This document shows, piece by piece, positions 4,068-47,375 of a DNA stretch of 64,000 nucleotides. Both the position numbers and the translations under genes were made by a program. The notes below the pieces were generated by a model, which saw only the letters and a list, made by a program, of their open reading frames with translations, ran no database searches and had not been told where the DNA came from. Within the stretch, counting starts at the first letter, position 1. Each line of letters opens with the position of its first letter. This stretch comes from Paramecium tetraurelia. Lineage: Eukaryota. Location of the stretch: positions 124,001 to 188,000 of the forward strand of contig CT868040.1 in assembly GCA_000165425.1 (NCBI GenBank), read 5' to 3'.

Positions 4068-5550
4068 TCAGAGAAGCTCCATCATCAGTTTAATGAAATC
4101 TTGCTTATTTAACTAAGAATAGATCGAATAATTACTTTTTTTTAATTAAATTTGCTTGCAATTTCATTTTCAATTTTATCTTCATCACAACTTATATATT
4201 TAGAAAATTAAGAGGTAACAACAAATCCTTTCCTTTACAATTCGTAAAATGCAATATTCAAATTGAATTCATTTAACAAAGCTGCTCTATCACAAGAAGT
4301 AAAAATGAATTCATTCATATCTATTTTTCCATTTCCATCAATGTCAATTTAATCAAATATTTCATCTATGTCTTCTTCATATCCTAAGGCATTTTTCAAT
4401 TCCTCCTTTTGTAAGGTTCCATTATGATTGGTATCATTCTTCAAAAATACCCTTTAGATTTGATTTTATCTCTCCTAAAAAAACATCTTATTCATGACTA
4501 ATATTATTTATTATTAAAGATACGAGGCCTTTTTGACCTATATCTTTGAAAATATCGATTCAGCATATTGAGATTAATATTTCTTTATAATTTTTTAGTA
4601 ATTTGAATTTTACTGCAAATTATCATAAATTGAGAGATTTTTTAATTCCAGAAATTAAATTACTAAAAGAAACCAAAAGGAATTTCTATATGATAAATCT
4701 TTTGGTTTCTTTAAAATCATTTCAGTTGTTTATTTAGTTATTTGTTTATTCGTAAGCAATTGAAATAAAATAAGTCCAACTGCCTTCATGTCGTTTAGTT
4801 GATTCCTCTAAACATCCTATTTATCCTTTACTTAAAATACAGGATATATATCAATCAATTTGACATAATGATTATTTGATTAATCTTAGAGAGCAAAGCT
4901 TTGAATGCTTAAATTTCCATGATAATTATTTAAATTATGAATCTCTTTGAGAGTATCTAAAATTTAAGATATAATGTAAATGGCATTGTCCTCTTCAATT
5001 TTACCGCATAAATTGTTAAGCTTACCGCCACTACAGTATTATTGAATCACATAGTAGCATTTAAAATCTTGAAACAGCTCGATTGCGTTATTAAAATGTG
5101 GGGAAGACTTTTGTAATATAAATAGAATTACTAAGTTATTTTCTCGAATATTATTAATGTATTAATCCATGTCATTAATTGATTCGTCTTCTTTTAGAAT
5201 GGTCTTAGCAGTTCTAACCTATCCGGTGACATTATGTTGTATTAAACCTATATTGTCATTATCTGAATAAATTAAATGAGCTTACTTGGATAACCAAAGT
5301 CCTAATTGAGAACGGAATAAGTTTTGGCTAAAGCTTCCTTAAACATCCTTTTGCTAGTTCCGATTGCAATTGGAGTTTTTATGGTCGAGAAATGGTCTTT
5401 TACAATTGTGTTCAAAGTAGGCTATGTTTTAGGTCTTATTGGGGTTTCTTTTCCTTTTGATTTACTTTGAATATTTGTGTCGCTTTAAGTGTGTAACTTC
5501 TTGGCAGCAAAAGATTTCCTTGAATTCCTATTTGACTAGCACAAACCCAT
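4068..5550 (-). CDS. CDPK-like protein: degenerate kinase domain plus EF-hands (probable pseudokinase)
   Basis: MGLC N-terminal acylation motif; kinase-like ELFQDFKCYYVIQQYCSGGKL; catalytic loop YHGNLS; VKLIDIY; EF-hands NDTNHNGTLQKEE and IDIDGNGKIDMNEF. Confidence 0.75.
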
Positions 5551-6400
5551 AATATTATTAATTCAATATATTAAATTTAAGTTGTATTAAATACTGGTAA
5601 CCTTGCGTATCTTAATTTTACAAATAATACTCCTCTCACATGCATTGCATAAATAAAGTGTTAAAAATAAGTCGAACTATAATTTATGAAAAGTGATATT
5701 TGATAAATATAGAAATTCAAATTTGGTAAAAACATAGATGAAATTCTAAAAAATATCAAAAGAAAAATTATGTAGATTTCTCAATTGACATATAGAAATG
5801 GTGTAATTCTACTAATCTATCTAGTACCAAAGTTAATCTGAACCTATAAATGAATTAAAACCTTTAGAACAAGGGATTATAATTATAATTCATTAAAATT
5901 AAGTAAAAAATTCATAATTTAATTATGCTTGTCTATAATAATGAAACTATTTGAGTATATATTTAATTAAAGAGATTTTATTTCAAACAAGATAAAATTT
6001 CCTAAACATTCTTATTTCATCAACCTATAGAGAGGATATCATAAGGCAATTTGTTACTTTCCATCATTATATTAAATAATATAAAAACTTGATATACAAT
6101 TATTTCAAATTTAAACAAAAGCAAATTGTATAATTATCATTCCTCTTTCATATTATGTGCAATATTTAACATATTAGAAAAGAAGAGAGTAGACCATTTA
6201 ATTTTATAATTTACTCCCTATAAATAGATGAACTGATTATAACTTTTAACCTTTATAGTATTTCAGAGTGTTGAGGTGATCAACGGGATGATCTAAATGT
6301 AGAAGAGCTGTTTCTAATGTTACTTAAGTTATAGAGGAAAACGAAAGAAAGTAGCAATTATCTCTTGTTATTGCTAATTAAATATATTAAAATATAATTT

Positions 6401-9707: not shown

Positions 9708-11361
9708 TCATTATTGCTCAATAGCCCATAGTTCCATATGCATTATTCCAAATTTCTCTTCATTAGTAAATCTTGGGTTCTCAAAAGTGGAACAAGGGTT
9801 AGAATAACCAAATGAAAGACTTTAATCTATAAAGAGACCAAATTTATCTCCACATCCTATTCCTATACCAGATTCATCGCAGAAAATAAAATCTTTATTT
9901 TTTTCAGTCCAAACAAATGTCCTAATTTCATTCTACTTAAATCATATAATTTTAATTATACTTTTGAATCGACATTGAATAAAAAGGTTTCACCATTACC
10001 CTTAAAGCCTTGGAAGTATTTATTAATTTCGCTTGAAATGTATACACCAAAAATATTAAGATCAAAATCTTTGATTATTAATAACATGGGAAATATTTAT
10101 CTAATTTACTGAAGCATGTTATGATAACTGGATCCATCAATATCAATATCGTAAAGCTTATTCCAATTAGCTAATCTATATATAGCCGGTATAGATTAAA
10201 TGACTTATTTGAACGTTGTATTGGTAAAGCAATTGGAGTTTCCTGTCAAAATTGGAACATATTCCAAACTAGCCCATAAATCTATTATTTTTAATAAAAT
10301 TTACTGCCCATACGCTGCCCAATAACATCTGAGATTTCATCTACATCCACATTTAAATTCTATTTTTAAGCAAGATCATAAATGAAATCTACAAATGGTA
10401 AAAGAGTTAATTCTACAGCTGCTGTATAAGTTGAACAGGCTTCAGTGATGAACCTGGCCATTGTAATGCAATTTTCCTTTTTGATTTCTTCAGCATACAA
10501 TTTCCCTTCATAGTCTCTTTCAGCATGCTAATTATATAATATTTAAGTCCCTTACTCTAAAAAACACTGTAGCAATGCTTTATTTTTACTCTTTAAGTTT
10601 GTCTAATTGTTTTCTGTGTTTCTTCTCAAATTTTGGCTTTCCTATCCCTGATAGCATTATTTGCACAATATAGTCTAAATGACCATATTTATTAGGTAAG
10701 ACATAATAAACTGCTTCATTTATATCACTCATTGAGATGCAAGCTTGGAATCTTAATTTCTAATGGTTATCAACTAGATGATCTTATTGAACTGGATTGA
10801 ATAGGATTAAATCAGATGCCAGAGTCAACTATCCTTAGACATTTTATATATTGTTACAATATACTACATCAACTAGTAATAATTATGATCTACATTACAT
10901 CTTAATGAATTAGCCTCAGGGTTCCATAAATATTCTAATTTCTCCCTTTCTTCTTGAATGTGAACAACTGGAAATGTCTTCTCATTTTTCTTGGGTATTC
11001 TTATGAATTAACCTTAGAATATTAAGTCACTTGACAAATTATTGATTCTCATTAGGTAGTCTTCACAAACGTTAAATTTGATTGCCATTCCATATAATGA
11101 ATCATCAGGTTTCACTTCATAATCAATAAGATCTTCTTAAAATTATTACTCTTCTTAGTGTACTGATTGAACCTGCTATTTATTATCATACTCTTCTTCA
11201 ATAATTTTCATTGCTTCTTCATCAATAATTTAAAAATCAATGGGTACTTTATTATCTACTTAAGGTTCTTCCAATTAGAATTGATCAAACTGTTCAAATT
11301 GAATAGTTTGTGAATCTTGTCTCAGCTTCTTTGAGAAGGCATTTTTAAATATATTTAACAT
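9708..11361 (-). CDS. LysM + TLDc domain protein (OXR1/NCOA7-like)
   Basis: LysM: YEVKPDDSLYGMAIKFNVCEDYLMRINNLSSDLIFQGQFIRIP; TLDc: WNKLYDIDIDGSS...FKGNGETF...IGIGCGDKFGLFID...CSTFENP...ELWAI. Confidence 0.88.
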
Positions 11362-11866
11362 TTCAAATAATATCTTAGATGGAGTGGAAATTAATAAACA
11401 TAGTTTTATTCAAATTATTAATTTTATTTCATATTCTTGATTATAAATAAATTATAATAGATGAAATAAGATATAGCAATTAATTATAAGTATCTTGCTT
11501 AATCAAAATTGATATAACAGATATAATATGATCATTCATCAATAATATAATGGACTAATAATAATCAAGTATTTTATTGATCTAAATTTAATCAATTAGA
11601 GTCTTGTTATAACCAAATATAACAAAAATAGTACTCACATTAAAATACTAATGTTCATTGATATAAATTAAAAACCTATAATCAAATTAAGAATATTGGC
11701 AATCAAAAGAAAGCTTCATCTTAGATATATCTTTCTAATTTTTTTTAGAAAAATAGTTGAATATTTATTTTTATACCCATTTAATTGAATCTTTAATGGG
11801 ATAGAGTAAAATATAGAAAATAATTTAATTTAAAAATTAGCTGTTGATTTTAATTATTTTATTTAT

Positions 11867-11876
11867 AAACCCATAA
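11867..11876 (+). promoter_or_regulatory. snRNA-type upstream element (PSE/USE) AAACCCATAA, copy 1
   Basis: Matches the ACCCATA core known upstream of ciliate snRNA genes; begins 59 nt before the structured body, the same spacing as in copy 2. Confidence 0.65.
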
Positions 11877-11925
11877 TTTAGAAATTAATTATTTATTATT
11901 TATAGAGCAAAATATTGGTTACAAA

Positions 11926-12032
11926 ACTTAATCCATCACTGGGTTCAATCAAATTGAAACAAAACCTATCCAAGTTTAAACCTATTTAATAGGTTGCGGG
12001 CGAGGCTCCTATTCCGGAAGCTAAGCTCGTTC
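11926..12032 (+). ncRNA. Candidate structured small ncRNA, copy 1 (snRNA-type promoter; possibly Arisong-like)
   Basis: GC-richer island with hairpins AATCCA/TGGGTT, TTCAAT/ATTGAA, AACCTAT/ATAGGTT and GCGGGC/GCTCGT; ends in GTTC; AAACGAAA at 12044-12051; duplicated at 13061-13165. Confidence 0.6.
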
Positions 12033-12407
12033 TTAAATTAAACAAACGAAATTTATATATATATTCTCTCTTCTGTGATAACTTCAAATAGATCAAATCA
12101 TTTTCTCCACTTAAAGAAACAATAGAACACATGTAATTTTTAGAATATCAAATATTTATTAGAGCAATATTAACAAATTATTTAAAAAATATAATTTCTC
12201 TTTGAAACGAGACTAACTACTCAGTGTTAACGCATGGCATAGCACTCAGTATACACGATATAATTTGTGTATTTGGATAATTGTACATTTATTCTATTAG
12301 TGATTGTTTAAATGATTACTGAATTCTGAGGCCTATTTAAAATTTTATTCTACTCTTCTAAATTTTTGTATTTAAATTAACAGCAACTGCAATTGGTTTT
12401 TAAATAT

Positions 12408-12597
12408 ATTAGAGTTTAAATTTATCTTAAATAAAACTAAACTCAAAATTTGGAATTTTATGATACCGATTCTATGAAGTAATTGCTAATTAATCAAGTT
12501 TATTGGAATAAATTTACAAGTGAATTCTTTACAATTTCAGAAAAACCAAGAAGACACCCGCAAATTCTAGCAGGAAAGTAGTCTTGTTTTTGAATAT
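12408..12597 (+). pseudogene. Degenerate coding-like fragment, duplicated at ~13471-13655
   Basis: ATTAGAGTTTAAATT...TACCGATTCTATGAA...AAAAACCAA..GACAC..GCAAATTCTA..AGGAAAGTAG is shared by both copies, with indels that break the frame. Confidence 0.5.
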
Positions 12598-12647
12598 TAA
12601 AAATGGTTATAAATTATAGCAGATTTTTTTTCTGTTCATTAAACTGT

Positions 12648-12972
12648 AATAGGTTGCAACTCTATTAACAAATAGGGCAATTAGATATCAACCATGTTGG
12701 ATATTCCTAATGTAATTTGTTTTTAATGAGTTTGCTAAACATTAAAAATGAAACTAATGTTTGCAACTTGATACGTTTAACAGATTCAAATTCTCAGCAT
12801 TTAATAGATTATATAATTCCATTAGCATAGTATCATAACTATTTTACTTTGCAAATGTTGATATTAAAATTTGAATATATCTATTAAATTTCCTTAAGGT
12901 TAATTTACAAGACTAACACTATTCGTTTTCATCTTATTTTTCTTATGGTAATCCTAATCCAACATTGATATT
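12648..12972 (-). pseudogene. Duplicated, frameshifted fragment of the RING-H2 region of the neighbouring UBR ligase gene
   Basis: Closely matches 14831-15155; a 1-nt deletion near 12720 (TGTAATTTGTTTTTAATGAG vs TGTAATTTGGTTTTAAATGAG) shifts the frame. Confidence 0.85.
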
Positions 12973-13001
12973 TAAATATTAATTTTAATGAATTTATTTA
13001 T

Positions 13002-13011
13002 AAACCCATAA
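13002..13011 (+). promoter_or_regulatory. snRNA-type upstream element AAACCCATAA, copy 2
   Basis: Identical motif, 59 nt before ACTTAATCC at 13061. Confidence 0.65.
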
Positions 13012-13060
13012 TTTAGAAATTAATTATTTACTATTTATCGAGAAAAATATTGCTTATAAA

Positions 13061-13165
13061 ACTTAATCCATCACTGGGTTCAATTTAATGAGCAAAACCT
13101 ATCCAAGTTTAAACCTATTTAATAGGTTGCGGGCAAGGCTCCTATTCCGGAAGCTAAGCTCGTTC
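13061..13165 (+). ncRNA. Candidate structured small ncRNA, copy 2
   Basis: Same hairpin array as copy 1; differences fall in the second hairpin (TTCA-ATTTAA-TGAG, still pairable) and at one unpaired G>A; ends in GTTC, followed by AAACGAAA. Confidence 0.6.
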
Positions 13166-13797
13166 TTAAATTAAACAAACGAAATTTATATATATATTCT
13201 CTCTTCTGTGATAACTTCAAATAGATCAAATCATTTTCTCCACTAAAAAATAATATAAATCAATATTTTTTTAGGCCTGCTTAGAATGTTATTCTATTTT
13301 TCTTAATTTTCATAATTCAAATGGTTTCTAAATATATTAAATTAAATACCAAAAAGTATGTTTAATAATGAGAGTCACTTCGATGATCAACATGATAACT
13401 TGATTAATTTAAGGAATCCTTATTATGCAGGAAAAGACATCATTGATTCATCCTTAAAATTCATTAACTGATTAGAGTTTAAATTAATCCTAAATAATTC
13501 TAAATTAAGAGTTTGCGTTTAATTTTACCGATTCTATGAAACAATGGCTAGCTAATAAGGTTGTTTGCATATATTTACAAATGAACCCTTTAAAACTACA
13601 TAAAAACCAAAAAGACACGTGCAAATTCTAAGAGGAAAGTAGAGTTGTTGAATAAAAAAGGTTTCCCAAATTATAACATTATTGTATTCTATTCATTAAA
13701 AAAATAATTTTACTCAATAATTTTAAATAAACTATTGTAGACTTTTAATATAAATTTATAAGATTTAATTAAATAATGATAATATTATTTATAGTAT

Positions 13798-16700
13798 TCA
13801 TAAATTCCTTCTAACATTCTGTCTGTTTCTGTTTTGATCATTTAATGCATTTCTTATAATTTGTTAATATTAATTATATAAGATAATCTTAGAAATTTAT
13901 TCTACTTTTTCCATATCTAAATTGTATTTATCCCAATCTAGATTAGTATATGTAAGTTAATTTATTTCTTAACCTAAGTTGTTATAAAATAAGCTAAAAC
14001 AATTAACATATGACATAGGATAAGATGTTATCACAACATTCCCTGAGCTCAAGCAAACATAGACTGAATGGCAGTTGTGCTCCTCTTCAGCATGAATACT
14101 TAAGTTGCCAATTTTATAATTTTTACATGAACCTAAACATAATGTTTTTAAACAAAGTAAACATACAGCAATATCTTAACCTTATTTCTACTTAGTGGCA
14201 AAGAAGCCACATTTTTTGCATAAGTTCTTAATATATCTATGTCTAAAAGTTTCAAAATTTTTTCCTAATAGTATGGCTATTTAATTGGATATTTCTTTTT
14301 AGGTTTAATAGAAATCTGTTATACACATTGATGATATTTCATTTTATTCACCATAAAATAGTTCATCATTAAATTTTATTTCGAAACAAGTAAATAAAAT
14401 TTTAACTAAGTCATCATTTTGCTTTGGCAACGATAATAATATTTTTGAGATTTCTTATTCGAAATCATTTTTATTAATTACTGACATTACTTAATTCTCG
14501 ATTAACATCATAATGTCCAATATAAATATTTATCCTTTCTTAAATTTCAGTATATTCTACTTATAATTGATGTTTTTATAATGATGCTTTAAAATCCTGA
14601 TAAATTGCTAGAAAATCTAAACTTTACCAGATCTCTAAAAGTCTACCTTTTATTATATCATTTAGATTAAAATATTAATAAGTAACTGATAGAAAATATC
14701 AAATAAAATTAATTCTTCTCTACCTTCATATTTTAATGATAATTATAAATCTAAATTTAATTCAATTAAAATTGCCTCTAATTCTTAAATGAATAAATTA
14801 AAATGAACTTCAAGTTAAGAATTAGGATATAATAAGTTGCAACTCTATTAACAAATAGGGCAATTAGATATCAACCATGATGGATATTCTTAATGTAATT
14901 TGGTTTTAAATGAGTTTGCTAAACATTTAAAATGAAACTAATGCTTGCAACTTGACACATTGAATAGATTCAAAGTCTCAGCATTTAATAGGTTTTATAA
15001 TTCCATTGGCATAGTATCATATCTATTCTACTTTGCAAATGTTGATATTAAAATTGGAATATATCTATCATCTTACTTTAATGTTAATTTACAAGACTAA
15101 CACTATTCATTTTCATCGTATTTTTCTTATGGTAATCCTAATCCAACATTGATATCTAATTATTCGTTAAATTTAGATTATTTCTAAAGATATTTCTTTT
15201 TCATTTTGGATTTATCTGAAATCAATATTTAACTATTTATTTATTGTAAAGAGTTTGACCCTATTTCAAATAATGAGTTTAAATTTTCAATGATCTGATC
15301 AAGATATTCTGCACATTTTTAATTATTCTATTTATATTATTAGGTAAGTTTTTAAATCAAATCAAGTAGTTCTTGATCAACCTTATTTTATTATTTAGAT
15401 AAAATGATAATCAAATAATTTAGTAATTAAGATGTTTACAATTTTTATAATTAATTCTATTCTATTTCCCTGTATCAATTATTTAATAAAAGGTTCATTA
15501 ATAAGTAGGTGAAAAATGTCAAAAAATATTGAATCCTTATTTGATGAAAGATGTTTGATGATTTCATCTGCCTTATATTGGGTGTAATTTCCAAAGTTCA
15601 TAAATCTTTACGATTTTTTTTGATCAATCAATCTTTCTACAATATTTCCTTTAACTGCATTGCTTTTTGTAAATACGATAGGATCAAGATATAATTAAAT
15701 ACCTTTTTTTAAAGTAAATGTTTTTGATATTAAATCTAATTAACATACTTCTTATACAAGATTTTCTATTGGTGAATTAGTTTTTACTTTTAATTATTCT
15801 ATGTGTTTCTATATTTCATCAAAGCTCAAACTAGCTGATTGATTGAACAAATTTATTATAATATGATGAATCGTAGAGTTGAGCTATTTAGGATATAGAT
15901 CCAATGATTCTTCGACCATTTATAACACATTCCAAAATTCTATTTCTGATGAAATTATGCTTAACAACATGGAACTAAAATAGATTAAGATAATTACTTA
16001 TAAATTTCAGAGGCGATCTTTTTATCAGGAATTCTAAATTTTTAAAATGCAACCTCTAAAAACAATAAACCATCTAGTTCAAATAAGAATAGATAGAATT
16101 TTATGTAAGCAAGATCAACAGATTCCAACTCACTTGAATTGAAATCAATTCTTTACTATTCTTCTTATAATCTCTTTTTCTAGTCAAAATTAAGAGCAAT
16201 CAAATTCTAAAGAGAATCAATTAATAAATTATTAAACAAAGGTTTTAAATCTTTTAAGTTTTCCATTCTGAGAACTTCCATCAAATGCTTTAGATATTAT
16301 TCTTTATCAATAAATTAGCCTTCAAAGTATTCGAGAATTAGCAATTCTATAAATATTAGGTTCGTAAAAATTGGTCTCTTTAAGAGTTTTAGGCTTAATA
16401 AATTATACGCTTCGCATACTTCTTGTTGTCCTTTGATAGTTGTTTCAGAATCTACATAATCTATATAAAAATTATCAATTTATTCAAAATAATTTCCAAT
16501 ATTTTATACATCTTAGTTTAATTTCAGATAACATTAATACAAATATATTCTTGATAGATTTCTTTTTCCAATCAGTTTGGGCATTAAACTTCTTAAACCA
16601 TTGAACATTTTATTAAATACATAGAATTAGTTTAATTAAAAATTGATAATGAGAGCAGCATTATATAAATTATCATTTTACACAACGAGACTATCTAATT

Positions 16701-41419: not shown

Positions 41420-43143
41420 TCATATTAATATTGAATTTACTATCATGTAATCTAATAATAATGTTGGACAATATCTTTTCAATGTGTCATATTCCACATA
41501 ATATTGATCCCCATCCTCATAAAGACATCTAAAAAGAAGTTTTCCTATTAAAAAATGATGAGATTCAATGGTCTCTACAATTATTTATTTTAATTTGACC
41601 TCATTTAACTCCATATCATAGAGAATCAATTCAGTATTCATAAAGTTATTTTTAATATATTAGACTCCAACCTCTTTTAGCTTAGGTATTATTAGAATGC
41701 TGCATCTGTTAGTCCTGTTTAATTTAATTTTCTCCAATTATAGTTTCTATATCTCCTGTTAAATTTATTAGCTAGTTTTCACACTAGTTTGAATTTTTGG
41801 TTCTCTATAGAATAATTGCATGAAAGGAAATTTTTCCTTTTATTAACCCTCTCCTTTTTGTTCTACCTCCATTATTTGAGAAATGAAATTTTTTTCAGTC
41901 TTTTTATTGACATTAGAATCCTCTTAGGTAGTATTTTTAATTATTTTTGGATTGAAAACTGATTTCACAACTCTAAACTTTGAACACTAATTTTTAAGAG
42001 AACTTGTTGAAACTGAAACAAAATTTTAAATATGGACATCTTTTAATTTTTCTAACTCATTTAATTATTATGGTTTCTGCTACTATTCACAATCTTCTGT
42101 TAACTGCAAATCTATTTCAAAAGATTCTTCTTAAGGTTAGCTTATTTTTTCTTGAACATCGAAGCTTGATAAATTATGTGTCTTAGGGAATTCTAAAGCT
42201 GTCTTGTTTTTTTCTAATTATTAACTGTTCCACTAAGATAATTTTATGGGTTTTTCTTGATTTTTATTTTGTTAAATTAATTTTGATAGTTCTGTATTTT
42301 CAGGTTCATTGAGAATAATTTAACATTCACAAACACTTTATTATTATTATTATTATTATTATTATTCTTTTAACTTAAAATCTATTTCTGCCTTTAAGTT
42401 TGTGATTCTTTTTTTTTCAATTTTTTTTCTTATAATTCATTTTAAATGAGCAATTTAATATCTTTTTCTAACTCATAATCAATAGATTCCTTCTTATTTT
42501 ACTTACTTTTTTTCTTGTTTTGTTTTGGCACTTCATATCTAATTGGGGATAGGCTTGTTATAGAGATTACTTCATTATTTTCTTATTAATTTAGAATTTT
42601 TCTAAAATTGTTTTTTTATTTGCATACTTTTTTTTAGATTTTTTAATGTATCTTACTATTATTTGAGGTTAAAAAATTTTGTTTCATATATGTAATAATC
42701 TTCTATGCCTTATCAAATGGAGATGAGGTATCCTAAGAGCATGATACAATCTATTTTTCGCACCCAATTGACTTTTTTTTGAGATTGGTATTAACTTATT
42801 AGATTTAGCAAAACTTCCCTTTTATATGGACTCGTATACCATTTGTATTTTGAGCAACCTTTTTGTAGTATAAAGAATAGCAAAGTCTTGTTTCTAAGCG
42901 TCTTACAAAGTTAAATAAACTATGGATACCTTACTAGATAACTTGATATACTCGTGAAATTGGAAACAGGTTCCCATGACATTTGCTATATTGTCCATCC
43001 CAGCCATTTAACAGCATAATAGGTTCTTTTTTTGAACATTTTCTTACCATAAACAAATTCTACATCGTAAATGTCTAAGGAATGAATTAAAATATTATAC
43101 TATTGTCATCACTGTCAAACTCCCTCTCTTTACATTTGCTCAT
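41420..43143 (-). CDS. HP1-like protein with N-terminal chromodomain and C-terminal chromoshadow-like domain
   Basis: IYDVEFVYGKK...YYAVKWLGWTIQQMSWEPVSNF chromodomain; long low-complexity hinge; LLFRCLYEDGDQYYVEYDTLKRYCPTLLLDYM at the C-terminus. Confidence 0.8.
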
Positions 43144-45494: not shown

Positions 45495-47375
45495 TCATTG
45501 TTGTTTCTATCTCAATAAGTATAAAAACATCATAGCCATCATTCTGAAAAACAGAATTATAGCCACTAAAATAACTAAACATTTCCAGAGACCTAGAGTT
45601 AAGTCATATGTATCAATAGGGCTACTGTTCTAAATTGTTGTACCAAGAAACTCATCACTTCTTGAATCAAATTCATTCCAAACTAAGGCTTCAAATGCAT
45701 ATTTCATTGGACTTATGTACTAAACCCAACCAATCCAATCCATATATAAGGATTGATTAGCATAAAATCCAGAGAAAATGACCAAAGGCATTAAAACAAC
45801 AGGCAGAAAACCTGAGGCAGCTTTCACATCGGTAAACATGCATCCTGCCATTAATCCTAGAAATAATAATATTTAAGAATTACCAAAACTATTTCCACTC
45901 AAACCAAGGAGAATGCAGATAACAATGTTAATTATTACAATATCACCTGATTTATCATTCAAGTCTACCATCCAATAACAGATTAATTATTGGATTATTG
46001 GAAATAATATTAGAAAAGGAATTTCAACGGAACTTTTGCCAGTAAAATAAGCAGCAGTAGTATAGAGTTTAGAATTCTCTTCTCTTAAGAAAACTTCTCT
46101 CTCATCTGGAAATTAAATAATAACTGGGTTCAATGCTCCCATAAAACTGCTCATAACCAAAAAGAACAAAACTCCTATAGTACTCTATATTCCTTTATAT
46201 CCAGGCTCACTGCCAGCAGTCCAAAATATTCCTCCAATTAATAATCCAATAAAGATGGTCATCACTACTCTACCTCTAACTAACACTTTGTCTCTTTTCA
46301 TATTAATCATTCCTCTTCTAAAGATTTCCTTAACTTGAAATGCAAAAGTAGTTTAGATTGTTTATCTTTGTATTGCTTCTTTCTTAACTGCCTAGATCTG
46401 ACTTAAAATCTAATTTTCAAATTAATTATTGTAGTGAGTGAACAATGTTTGATAATGAGGATGATTAGAATCTTCATGATGCATCACACTCATCAAATAA
46501 TCTAGAGGATTAGAATGAGCGGGACACTCAAATCCAATGCCTTTAAAATAATCAACCATTTAATCTCTCCTTCCCTGATAAATAAATTTGCCTTGCACCA
46601 GAAGCATAACTTAATCGAACAAAGTATAAATGTCTGCACTTGGTTAATGAATTGTAAAAATGATTGTTCTACCTGAGCTTTGGGCTAGTTTTTTGAGCAG
46701 ATTACTATTCTCATATTATAAAATATCTACATTATAACAAAGGCTGTAAACGAATCCAATCCAGAAGTTGGTTCGTCTAACATGATACAGTACGGATCAC
46801 TGACCAATTCTACTCCGATTGATGTTCTTTTCCTCTCTCCTCCAGATATACCTTTTATAAGAGCATTACCAATCTTTAAATATTATTTAAATTTGTACTA
46901 ATGTATTTTAACAACGCTCTAATTTTAATGTCTTAATTGCATATTCCACTTTATCTACTTTCTACTGCGGATCTGCATACTTCAAATTGGCTACAAACTC
47001 AAACGTTTCCCTAACAGTTAATGTTCCGAATAGAACATCATTTTGCATCACATAGGATGAAAACTAAGCAAATTAATCACTGTTGTAAGGTTATCCATTA
47101 GCCGATATTTCACCCAGCAATTAAACATTCCTTGACAAAGAGATTCTTTTTGCCAAGATATTCAATAGCGAGGTCTTCCCTGCTCCAGATGCACCCAAAA
47201 TGGCTGTTACTTCACCTGGATGGCAAATTCCCGATATCTTGTTTAGGATTGTTCTTTATTCTGACACTCCCTTAGGATTCTTTATAGACACTTAATAAGT
47301 TAGGTTTTGAAAACTGACTGTTACTCGATTAGTTTGACTGATTTCTGTTGTAGGTACAACTGTTGCTGCTTTCAT
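45495..47375 (-). CDS. ABCG (White-family) half transporter
   Basis: Walker [43 protein letters not shown], followed by a TM domain ([23 protein letters not shown]). Confidence 0.95.

Follow-up and report, generated by a model that had tools for sequence, protein, structure and literature searches.

What kind of gene is represented by the two near-identical cassettes found at positions 11860-13244 of a 64,000-nucleotide (nt) stretch of the Paramecium tetraurelia contig CT868040.1? This whole stretch is the window of our analysis, and all coordinates below refer to it. The initial annotation, made from the sequence alone, had described each cassette as an independently transcribed small noncoding RNA (ncRNA) gene with a promoter and a 3' box of the small nuclear RNA (snRNA) type, and had suggested that the product belongs to the ciliate Arisong family rather than being wholly new. 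Both proposals are supported here: the motifs stand at published spacings, the depth of RNA sequencing (RNA-seq) over the body is 2228, and all five features by which the family has been described are present. Because the proximal sequence element (PSE), the 3' box, the dumbbell of two hairpins, the GUUC tail, and the variable 5' part occur together, membership in this family is favored, and the two loci are probably tandem paralogous genes of the Arisong (PM01) small-RNA family from the Paramecium aurelia complex. RNAs of this kind are already known, including those of Paramecium itself, with eight loci in P. tetraurelia.

In both copies, the putative RNA gene is preceded by an exact match to the 10-mer AAACCCATAA, located on the plus strand at 11867-11876 in copy 1 and at 13002-13011 in copy 2. 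This element starts 59 nt before the motif ACTTAATCC, which begins at 11926 in copy 1 and at 13061 in copy 2, exactly the distance initially annotated. The ACCCAT core within the element begins 57 nt upstream of the proposed RNA start. The annotation had also regarded an ACCCATA-type element as a mark of ciliate snRNA genes, and rightly so: in the available passages of one study, AAACCCATAA is given as the upstream sequence element (USE) of Tetrahymena snRNA and small nucleolar RNA (snoRNA) genes, the same as in Paramecium ncRNA genes (PMC3273799). According to excerpts of a second study, the Oxytricha PSE is TgACCCATnAAnnnTTA, and its ACCCAT core is also contained in AAACCCATAA (PMC3177221). 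Exact copies of the 10-mer are overrepresented in the window, with four occurrences vs. 0.40 expected and none of 100 shuffles reaching four. When one mismatch is allowed, there is no enrichment (14 occurrences vs. 9.6 expected, with 9 of 100 shuffles reaching 14). The two further exact occurrences lie at 5543-5552 on the plus strand and at 42244-42253 on the minus strand. Around the former, a search of the region 5500-5900 against Rfam at E<=10 gave noise only. The latter falls within a long reading frame in the ciliate code (41965-43143, minus strand) and is probably a chance occurrence.

The candidate 3' box AAACGAAA is found on the plus strand at 12044-12051 in copy 1, where it forms part of the extended motif AAACAAACGAAA (12040-12051), and at 13177-13184 in copy 2. 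A 3' box about 12 nt beyond the gene had been expected from the initial annotation; the box is indeed present in both copies, and the spacer between it and the GUUC tail measures 11 nt. The 12-mer AAACAAACGAAA occurs in the window at the two cassettes only. The published Oxytricha snRNA 3' box is AAAnGAAAnnGTTTGATTAg, located 8-12 nt downstream of the gene, and the Paramecium consensus is said, in the same excerpts, to differ from it (PMC3177221). AAACGAAA fits the first half of the Oxytricha motif (AAAnGAAA) and lacks the second half, as expected given the reported difference between the consensus sequences of the two species.

Expression of the locus could be assessed directly, as the stretch is present in 20 sequencing runs from 10 studies, four of which runs were examined. 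In the RNA-seq cDNA run X20, a 118-nt contig with a mean depth of 2227.9 is identical to positions 11930-12017 (88 nt, 0 mismatches). In the same run, the spacer at 12559-12747 has a depth of 2.6, with four mismatches and one gap. This approximately 850-fold enrichment of the body over the spacer indicates that the contig comes from RNA and not from carried-over DNA. Run X23 contains raw oligo-dT paired reads; one third of the run was read, and 12 reads were placed. All reads over the two bodies have the first mate on the minus strand, which in most stranded libraries corresponds to plus-strand RNA, and copy 2 is covered to a depth of 2.5-4.3. The body is transcribed abundantly from the plus strand.

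Two other contigs point to additional loci that retain the 3' box region. One of them (run X19, record 4) matches 13126-13185 only and then diverges into unrelated sequence; it provides evidence for at least one more locus in the organism labelled A that would carry the last hairpin, the tail, and the 3' box in a different flank. The other (run X20, record 7) matches 13168-13197 only before diverging into unrelated sequence, and shows what appears to be a differently flanked locus in the organism labelled C.

The predicted RNA body covers 107 nt in copy 1 (11926-12032, plus strand) and 105 nt in copy 2 (13061-13165, plus strand), in agreement with the annotated length of about 105 nt and GTTC end. 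The 5' end of copy 1 could fall anywhere within 11926-11932, and the 3' end is assumed to coincide with the GUUC tail (12029-12032 in copy 1 and 13162-13165 in copy 2). On the plus strand, the predicted folding energies are -27.1 kcal/mol for copy 1 (z = -2.43) and -27.4 kcal/mol for copy 2 (z = -2.88), and the corresponding minus-strand z values are -0.20 and -0.25. Hence, by thermodynamic modeling, the plus-strand body folds better than its shuffles, and the minus strand does no better than shuffles. All four helices of the initial annotation can form in copy 1. Helix 1 (11930-11945) pairs AAUCCA with UGGGUU around the loop UCAC; it is the same in both copies and, hence, uninformative about covariation. 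It is followed by hairpin 2 (11945-11959), the putative variable module, which has been remodelled in copy 2; since both helices would use T11945, only one of them can include it at a time.

The 3' half of the molecule is predicted to form the dumbbell. Its first half, helix 3 (11979-11995), pairs AACCUAU with AUAGGUU around the loop UUA, and its second half, helix 4 (11996-12030), abuts helix 3 with no linker base and is interrupted by an internal loop of 2x2 nt (GA/AA for copy 1 and AA/AA for copy 2). The GUUC tail closes helix 4 and directly follows it. In copy 2, the dumbbell occupies 13112-13163 (helix 3 at 13112-13128 and helix 4 at 13129-13163) and differs from copy 1 by a single unpaired G>A only. 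When the 58 nt at 11975-12032 are folded separately, helices 3 and 4 followed by a UC overhang are obtained as both the minimum-energy and the centroid structure, with a free energy of -22.3 kcal/mol and z = -3.93; one of 200 shuffles equals this value. The motif AAACCTAT is present twice, at 11962-11969 and 11978-11985, and AUAGGUU (11989-11995) can pair with either occurrence. Pairing with 11979-11985 yields a short hairpin with a 3-nt loop, and pairing with AACCUAU at 11963-11969 yields a longer-range helix that encloses 11970-11988 and is the one seen in the minimum-energy fold. These alternative pairings may possibly constitute a structural switch.

The two bodies are 97% identical, differing by five substitutions and one 2-nt deletion. 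Six of the seven changed columns fall within 11950-11959, in hairpin 2; the seventh, at 12002 in the 3' half, is a G>A change in an unpaired base. The initial annotation held that the differences spare pairing. This is true of the change at 12002, and hairpin 2, although remodelled, is still pairable; on the other hand, the deletion in copy 2 takes away two of the four pairs of hairpin 2, and the replacement hairpin borrows bases of helix 1, which is thereby reduced to 3 bp in the minimum-energy fold.

The cassettes themselves are two direct copies of an approximately 270-bp unit (about 11845-12112 and 12980-13245), spaced by 1133-1135 bp. A repeat search aligned 11960-12129 with 13093-13262 (170 nt, 95% identity) and 11830-11954 with 12965-13089 (125 nt, 87% identity). 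In the alignment of the 1.2-kb tandem units, windows with at least 43 of 50 identical columns (at least 86%) are confined to 11845-12119, whereas most of the rest of the unit shows 19-30 identical columns of 50, which is noise for AT-rich DNA. The annotated near-identity of the cassettes is thus confirmed, with the DNA in between at noise level. Elsewhere in the unit, homology can be recognized only in a second, less similar block (12398-12643 vs. 13471-13700; 33-39 columns of 50, about 75% identity), which may be either a leftover from the duplication or a further element that is conserved. The reading frames tried in this block gave no Pfam matches, and low-depth contigs (2.6-3.4) cover 12559-12747 within it. 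The cassettes are preserved far better than the remainder of the old tandem duplication, and the contrast between their identity and the noise or about 75% seen elsewhere argues that the gene block has been kept by selection or gene conversion. Since the two copies arose by duplication, together they represent one independent event, not two.

Between the copies, 12003-12111 and 13136-13244 are identical over 109 nt, of which the 79 nt at 12033-12111 follow the GUUC tail, while differences are present in the promoter region and in the RNA's 5' half. As the additional loci seen in runs X19 and X20 diverge from this sequence at 13185 and 13197, respectively, the identity beyond the tail is probably the result of gene conversion within the tandem pair rather than an element shared across the family.

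The family to which we assign these genes was described by Jung et al. (2011, Nucleic Acids Res.). Excerpts of that paper report 32 Arisong loci in four ciliates, eight of them in P. tetraurelia; members are the Oxytricha RNAs Onc91, Onc92, Onc94, Onc95, Onc96, Onc155, and Onc156, with further loci in Stylonychia, Nyctotherus, and P. tetraurelia (PMC3177221). Of the eight loci in P. tetraurelia, six had earlier been predicted as PM01_1-6 from a signature of PSE plus conservation (Chen et al., RNA 2009, as cited in the same excerpts of PMC3177221). The traits listed there are a PSE located 50-60 nt upstream, a 3' box that follows 5-10 nt downstream (in Oxytricha), a coaxially stacked dumbbell, a strongly conserved tail of GUUC, and a 5' end that varies greatly (PMC3177221). 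Each has its counterpart in the loci studied here: the upstream element at 59 nt and the 3' box after 11 nt in both copies, two coaxially stacked hairpins predicted thermodynamically (z = -3.93, with identical minimum-energy and centroid structures), GUUC in the sequence of both copies, and a variable 5' part, with six of seven differing columns in 11950-11959 in the two sequences compared. Expression of a small stable RNA is in line with the depth of 2227.9 vs. 2.6 in run X20.

Could the cassettes instead encode a strongly diverged standard RNA that Rfam misses, such as U5, U7, U11, or U12 snRNA, a spliced-leader (SL)-type RNA, or a snoRNA? Their promoter and 3' box are the same as those of snRNAs, ciliate RNAs are often divergent, and ACUUA at the proposed start may look like the first bases of the U1 end that reads splice sites. 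However, no family of Rfam 15 reached its gathering score anywhere in the window, and at E<=10 there were no relevant matches to the locus in 11000-14500. In the 161 nt at 11900-12060, no family matched even at this cutoff, the sole weak hit being an unrelated Caenorhabditis C/D snoRNA model with 13.7 bits against a threshold of 65 bits. ARAGORN found no tRNA genes in the window, and no cloverleaf of a tRNA or a selenocysteine tRNA. When the body 11926-12032 is read directly, UGAUGA and CUGA boxes are missing, as are an ACA box 3 nt before the 3' end, an A-U(4-6)-G run of the Sm type, and any of the functional sequences conserved in U1, U2, U4, U5, and U6; telomerase RNA was rejected for want of a CCCCAA-type template in the body. 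These results uphold the statement of the initial annotation that signatures of U1, U2, U4, U5, U6, U3, signal recognition particle RNA, telomerase template, and tRNA are missing, and the Rfam covariance-model scan was the check that it had itself proposed. We know of no Arisong model in Rfam. In addition, Jung et al. judged the Arisong family unlike U11, U12, and SL RNAs, according to the excerpts (PMC3177221). Taken with the evidence above, a diverged standard RNA is a very unlikely explanation. It is even harder to believe that the cassettes are no RNA genes at all, being instead a duplicated stretch of DNA with a regulatory or structural role, homogenized by gene conversion, whose motifs and fold arose by chance. 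The identity of 109 nt that runs 79 nt past the RNA end does resemble recent gene conversion rather than selection on an RNA, and the lack of enrichment for AAACCCATAA with one mismatch points the same way. Against this stand the RNA-seq depth of 2228 vs. 2.6 nearby, the strand-consistent raw reads over both bodies, the strand-specific fold signal, the exact PSE at the published distance, and the other loci, which share the 3' end of the RNA and the 3' box only while their flanks differ.

The rival closest to the Arisong assignment is that the RNA belongs to a family of its own, as yet undescribed, of small RNAs of the snRNA type, which shares the ciliate PSE and 3' box and resembles Arisong in its two-hairpin 3' end by coincidence and not by homology. 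A PSE and a 3' box are common to many ciliate ncRNA genes, as stated in the excerpts of PMC3177221, and, hence, do not define a family; the likeness to Arisong is known from a description and not from sequences, the body has two extra hairpins in its 5' part, and the initial annotation had suggested that the RNA may be longer than other Arisong members. At the same time, hairpins joined without a linker, a GUUC tail, a variable 5' sequence, and the presence of several copies in Paramecium make up exactly the published description of Arisong, and eight such loci have been reported in P. tetraurelia on the same signature. We therefore consider an independent family unlikely, though less so than the two explanations above.

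Outside the locus, homologues were sought by structure and by pattern. A covariance model (R1) built on the dumbbell recovered only the two copies in the window: copy 2 scored 97.5 bits, and the next best match, with 14.6 bits, was the palindromic helix 3 on the other strand. The pattern GGTTGCGGGCN{15,45}GCTCGTTC returned 120 stretches from metagenomes, all in G+C-rich DNA, so that it proved too loose for that collection, and 38 equally G+C-rich matches from viral contigs. Among these 158 loci, the lowest G+C content was 0.47, and ACCCATAA was found in one only, with a G+C content of 0.52. A tighter pattern gave no matches in viral contigs and four in bacterial metagenome-assembled genomes. 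The model was then applied to 20 of the 162 loci (these four and the 16 poorest in G+C), where the best score was 18.5 bits, with only the bases forced by the pattern being matched. All metagenome and viral matches were rejected as chance occurrences.

Several observations weigh against assigning the loci to the Arisong family, or against parts of the gene model. The pattern searches in metagenomes, viral contigs, and bacterial metagenome-assembled genomes yielded no outside homologues, and membership is judged from the published verbal description rather than from an alignment of family sequences. The 11-nt spacer before the 3' box is slightly longer than the 5-10 nt of Oxytricha Arisong genes, yet within the 8-12 nt of Oxytricha snRNA genes. 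None of the 29 base pairs shows a compensatory change, and 27 are invariant in this comparison of two near-identical copies; thus, the copies show where variation is tolerated but lend no covariation support to the structure, whose support is thermodynamic only. The abundant contig comes from run X20, labelled organism C, while most runs that carry the stretch are labelled organism A. Because this contig is cyclic, it hides the true ends of the RNA, and the size and ends given above are thus predictions. One read pair of run X23 (12954-13010) lies upstream of copy 2, outside the predicted body. Finally, an AT-rich, TATA-like sequence at about -25 might point to RNA polymerase III, the less probable enzyme here. 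A type-2 polymerase III promoter was tried and rejected: GGTTCAATC at 11942-11950 is similar to a B box, yet an A box at a workable distance is missing, the motif is altered in copy 2, and a tRNA fold is lacking. The gene is followed by no run of four or more T, which favors polymerase II acting with the 3' box over polymerase III.

The cyclic contig deserves separate consideration. It consists of 88 nt plus a 30-nt overlap, with position 12017 (or 12019) joined to 11930 (or 11932), two letters being ambiguous, and the point of joining lies to the 3' side of the loop in the last hairpin rather than at the GUUC tail. Since the contig is cyclic, reads spanning the junction must exist. They could come from a circular or permuted RNA, from a template-switch chimera, or from an artefact of the assembly graph. 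Assembly graphs generally have their short dead-end branches clipped regardless of depth. If the RNA is very abundant, even a small number of chimeric cDNAs, produced, for example, by template switching of reverse transcriptase at the 2-nt AA overlap, could then close the cycle and hide the ends. Spliceosomal back-splicing was rejected as the origin, as the joint is bordered by GU or AG in neither of its two registers, and the truncated RNA 11930-12019 was rejected as a folded functional unit because its fold is close to random (z = -0.30). On balance, it is improbable that part of the RNA exists as an 88-nt circular or circularly permuted molecule. Should it nevertheless be so, the processing of Arisong RNAs would involve cleavage followed by joining of the ends. 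Jung et al. found no consistent 5' ends by rapid amplification of cDNA ends (RACE), raised a lariat or an unusual cap as explanations, and observed two northern bands for Onc91 (PMC3177221). An end-joined form, if real, could explain the diffuse 5' RACE ends, the suspicion of a lariat or cap, and both bands.

The following working of the genes is proposed as the most likely. Each gene would be a transcription unit of its own, in which AAACCCATAA would recruit the snRNA-type transcription machinery, probably with RNA polymerase II, and set the start some 50-60 bp downstream. The 3' box AAACGAAA, 11 nt beyond the gene, would direct formation of the 3' end right after GUUC, and the resulting RNA of about 105 nt would accumulate to a high level. 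Judging from its anatomy, the conserved 3' half, that is, the dumbbell with its short GUUC overhang, may serve as a constant scaffold that binds protein and stabilizes the molecule. The 5' half, chiefly the 10-nt patch at 11950-11959, would then be a variable module giving each paralogue its specificity. One guess is that this module acts by base pairing, like the 5' end of U7 or U1. The division into scaffold and variable module follows from the anatomy together with the published "variable 5' end". What the data show is the duplication with its selective conservation, the promoter and 3' box motifs at published spacings, the thermodynamic fold, and abundant plus-strand RNA; the exact ends of the RNA, the polymerase, the membership at the level of sequence, and the function of scaffold and module are inferred.

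The two RNA genes occupy a gap of approximately 2.4 kb (11362-13797) between two minus-strand genes, a LysM-TLDc gene that ends near 11361 and a RING-like reading frame at 13798-15204. Intergenic regions of Paramecium are typically a few hundred base pairs long, and this gap is unusually long. Elsewhere in the window, a 370-residue reading frame in the ciliate code (45495-46607) is a fragment of an ABC transporter, with best matches in P. primaurelia (92%), P. octaurelia (81%), and P. tetraurelia (71%); its differences from the P. primaurelia protein are scattered along the whole length.

What do these loci add? In the Oxytricha nanochromosome screen, no other new family of small RNAs with transcription units of their own came to light besides Arisong. 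In the open literature searched, the name was not found outside Jung et al. (2011), and the function of the family thus appears to be still unknown fifteen years on. With eight P. tetraurelia loci already published, novelty is lower than the initial annotation supposed, and little that is new in kind comes from the present loci. What they provide is a tandem pair that differs mainly within 10 nt of the 5' half, in the genetically tractable Paramecium, and the very high expression and the possible end-joined form are further leads. Together, the pair, its expression, and the odd joint offer handles on what the variable part recognizes and what binds the dumbbell. The significance of the loci is, therefore, modest and rests on the unexplained function of the family and on these leads.

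Comparison with known systems places the two loci closest to the Arisong RNAs, with which they share a PSE 50-60 nt upstream, a 3' box, stacked hairpins, a GUUC tail, and a variable 5' part, as well as the occurrence of several paralogous loci per genome, the lack of a convincing Sm site, and the lack of an assigned function. They differ in being arranged in tandem, 1.13 kb apart, in having one or two further hairpins in the 5' part, and in the 3' box spacer (11 nt vs. 5-10 nt in Oxytricha), the likeness as a whole being one of description, not sequence. The signature that led to the P. tetraurelia genes PM01_1-6 was likewise, according to the excerpts, a conserved sequence preceded by a PSE and accompanied by a 3' box, in a species of the P. 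aurelia complex, and the two loci are presumably their orthologues or paralogues. Ciliate spliceosomal snRNA and U3 genes have the same upstream element (AAACCCATAA or its ACCCAT core) and, at comparable distances, a 3' box of the AAAnGAAA type, and their products are also small, abundant, structured RNAs; in contrast, the RNA described here has no Rfam match to snRNAs or U3, no Sm site, and no functional sequences of U1, U2, U4, U5, or U6. A more distant parallel is provided by the U7 snRNA of animals, an RNA of about 60 nt with a special Sm site and a single hairpin, in which the 5' end base-pairs and the 3' hairpin is constant. U7 differs in that Sm site, in its single hairpin, and in its size, and the Paramecium RNA has no Rfam snRNA match. 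By analogy, nevertheless, U7 would correspond to the model proposed above: a short snRNA-type transcript in which specificity resides in the 5' end and the scaffold in the 3' hairpin.

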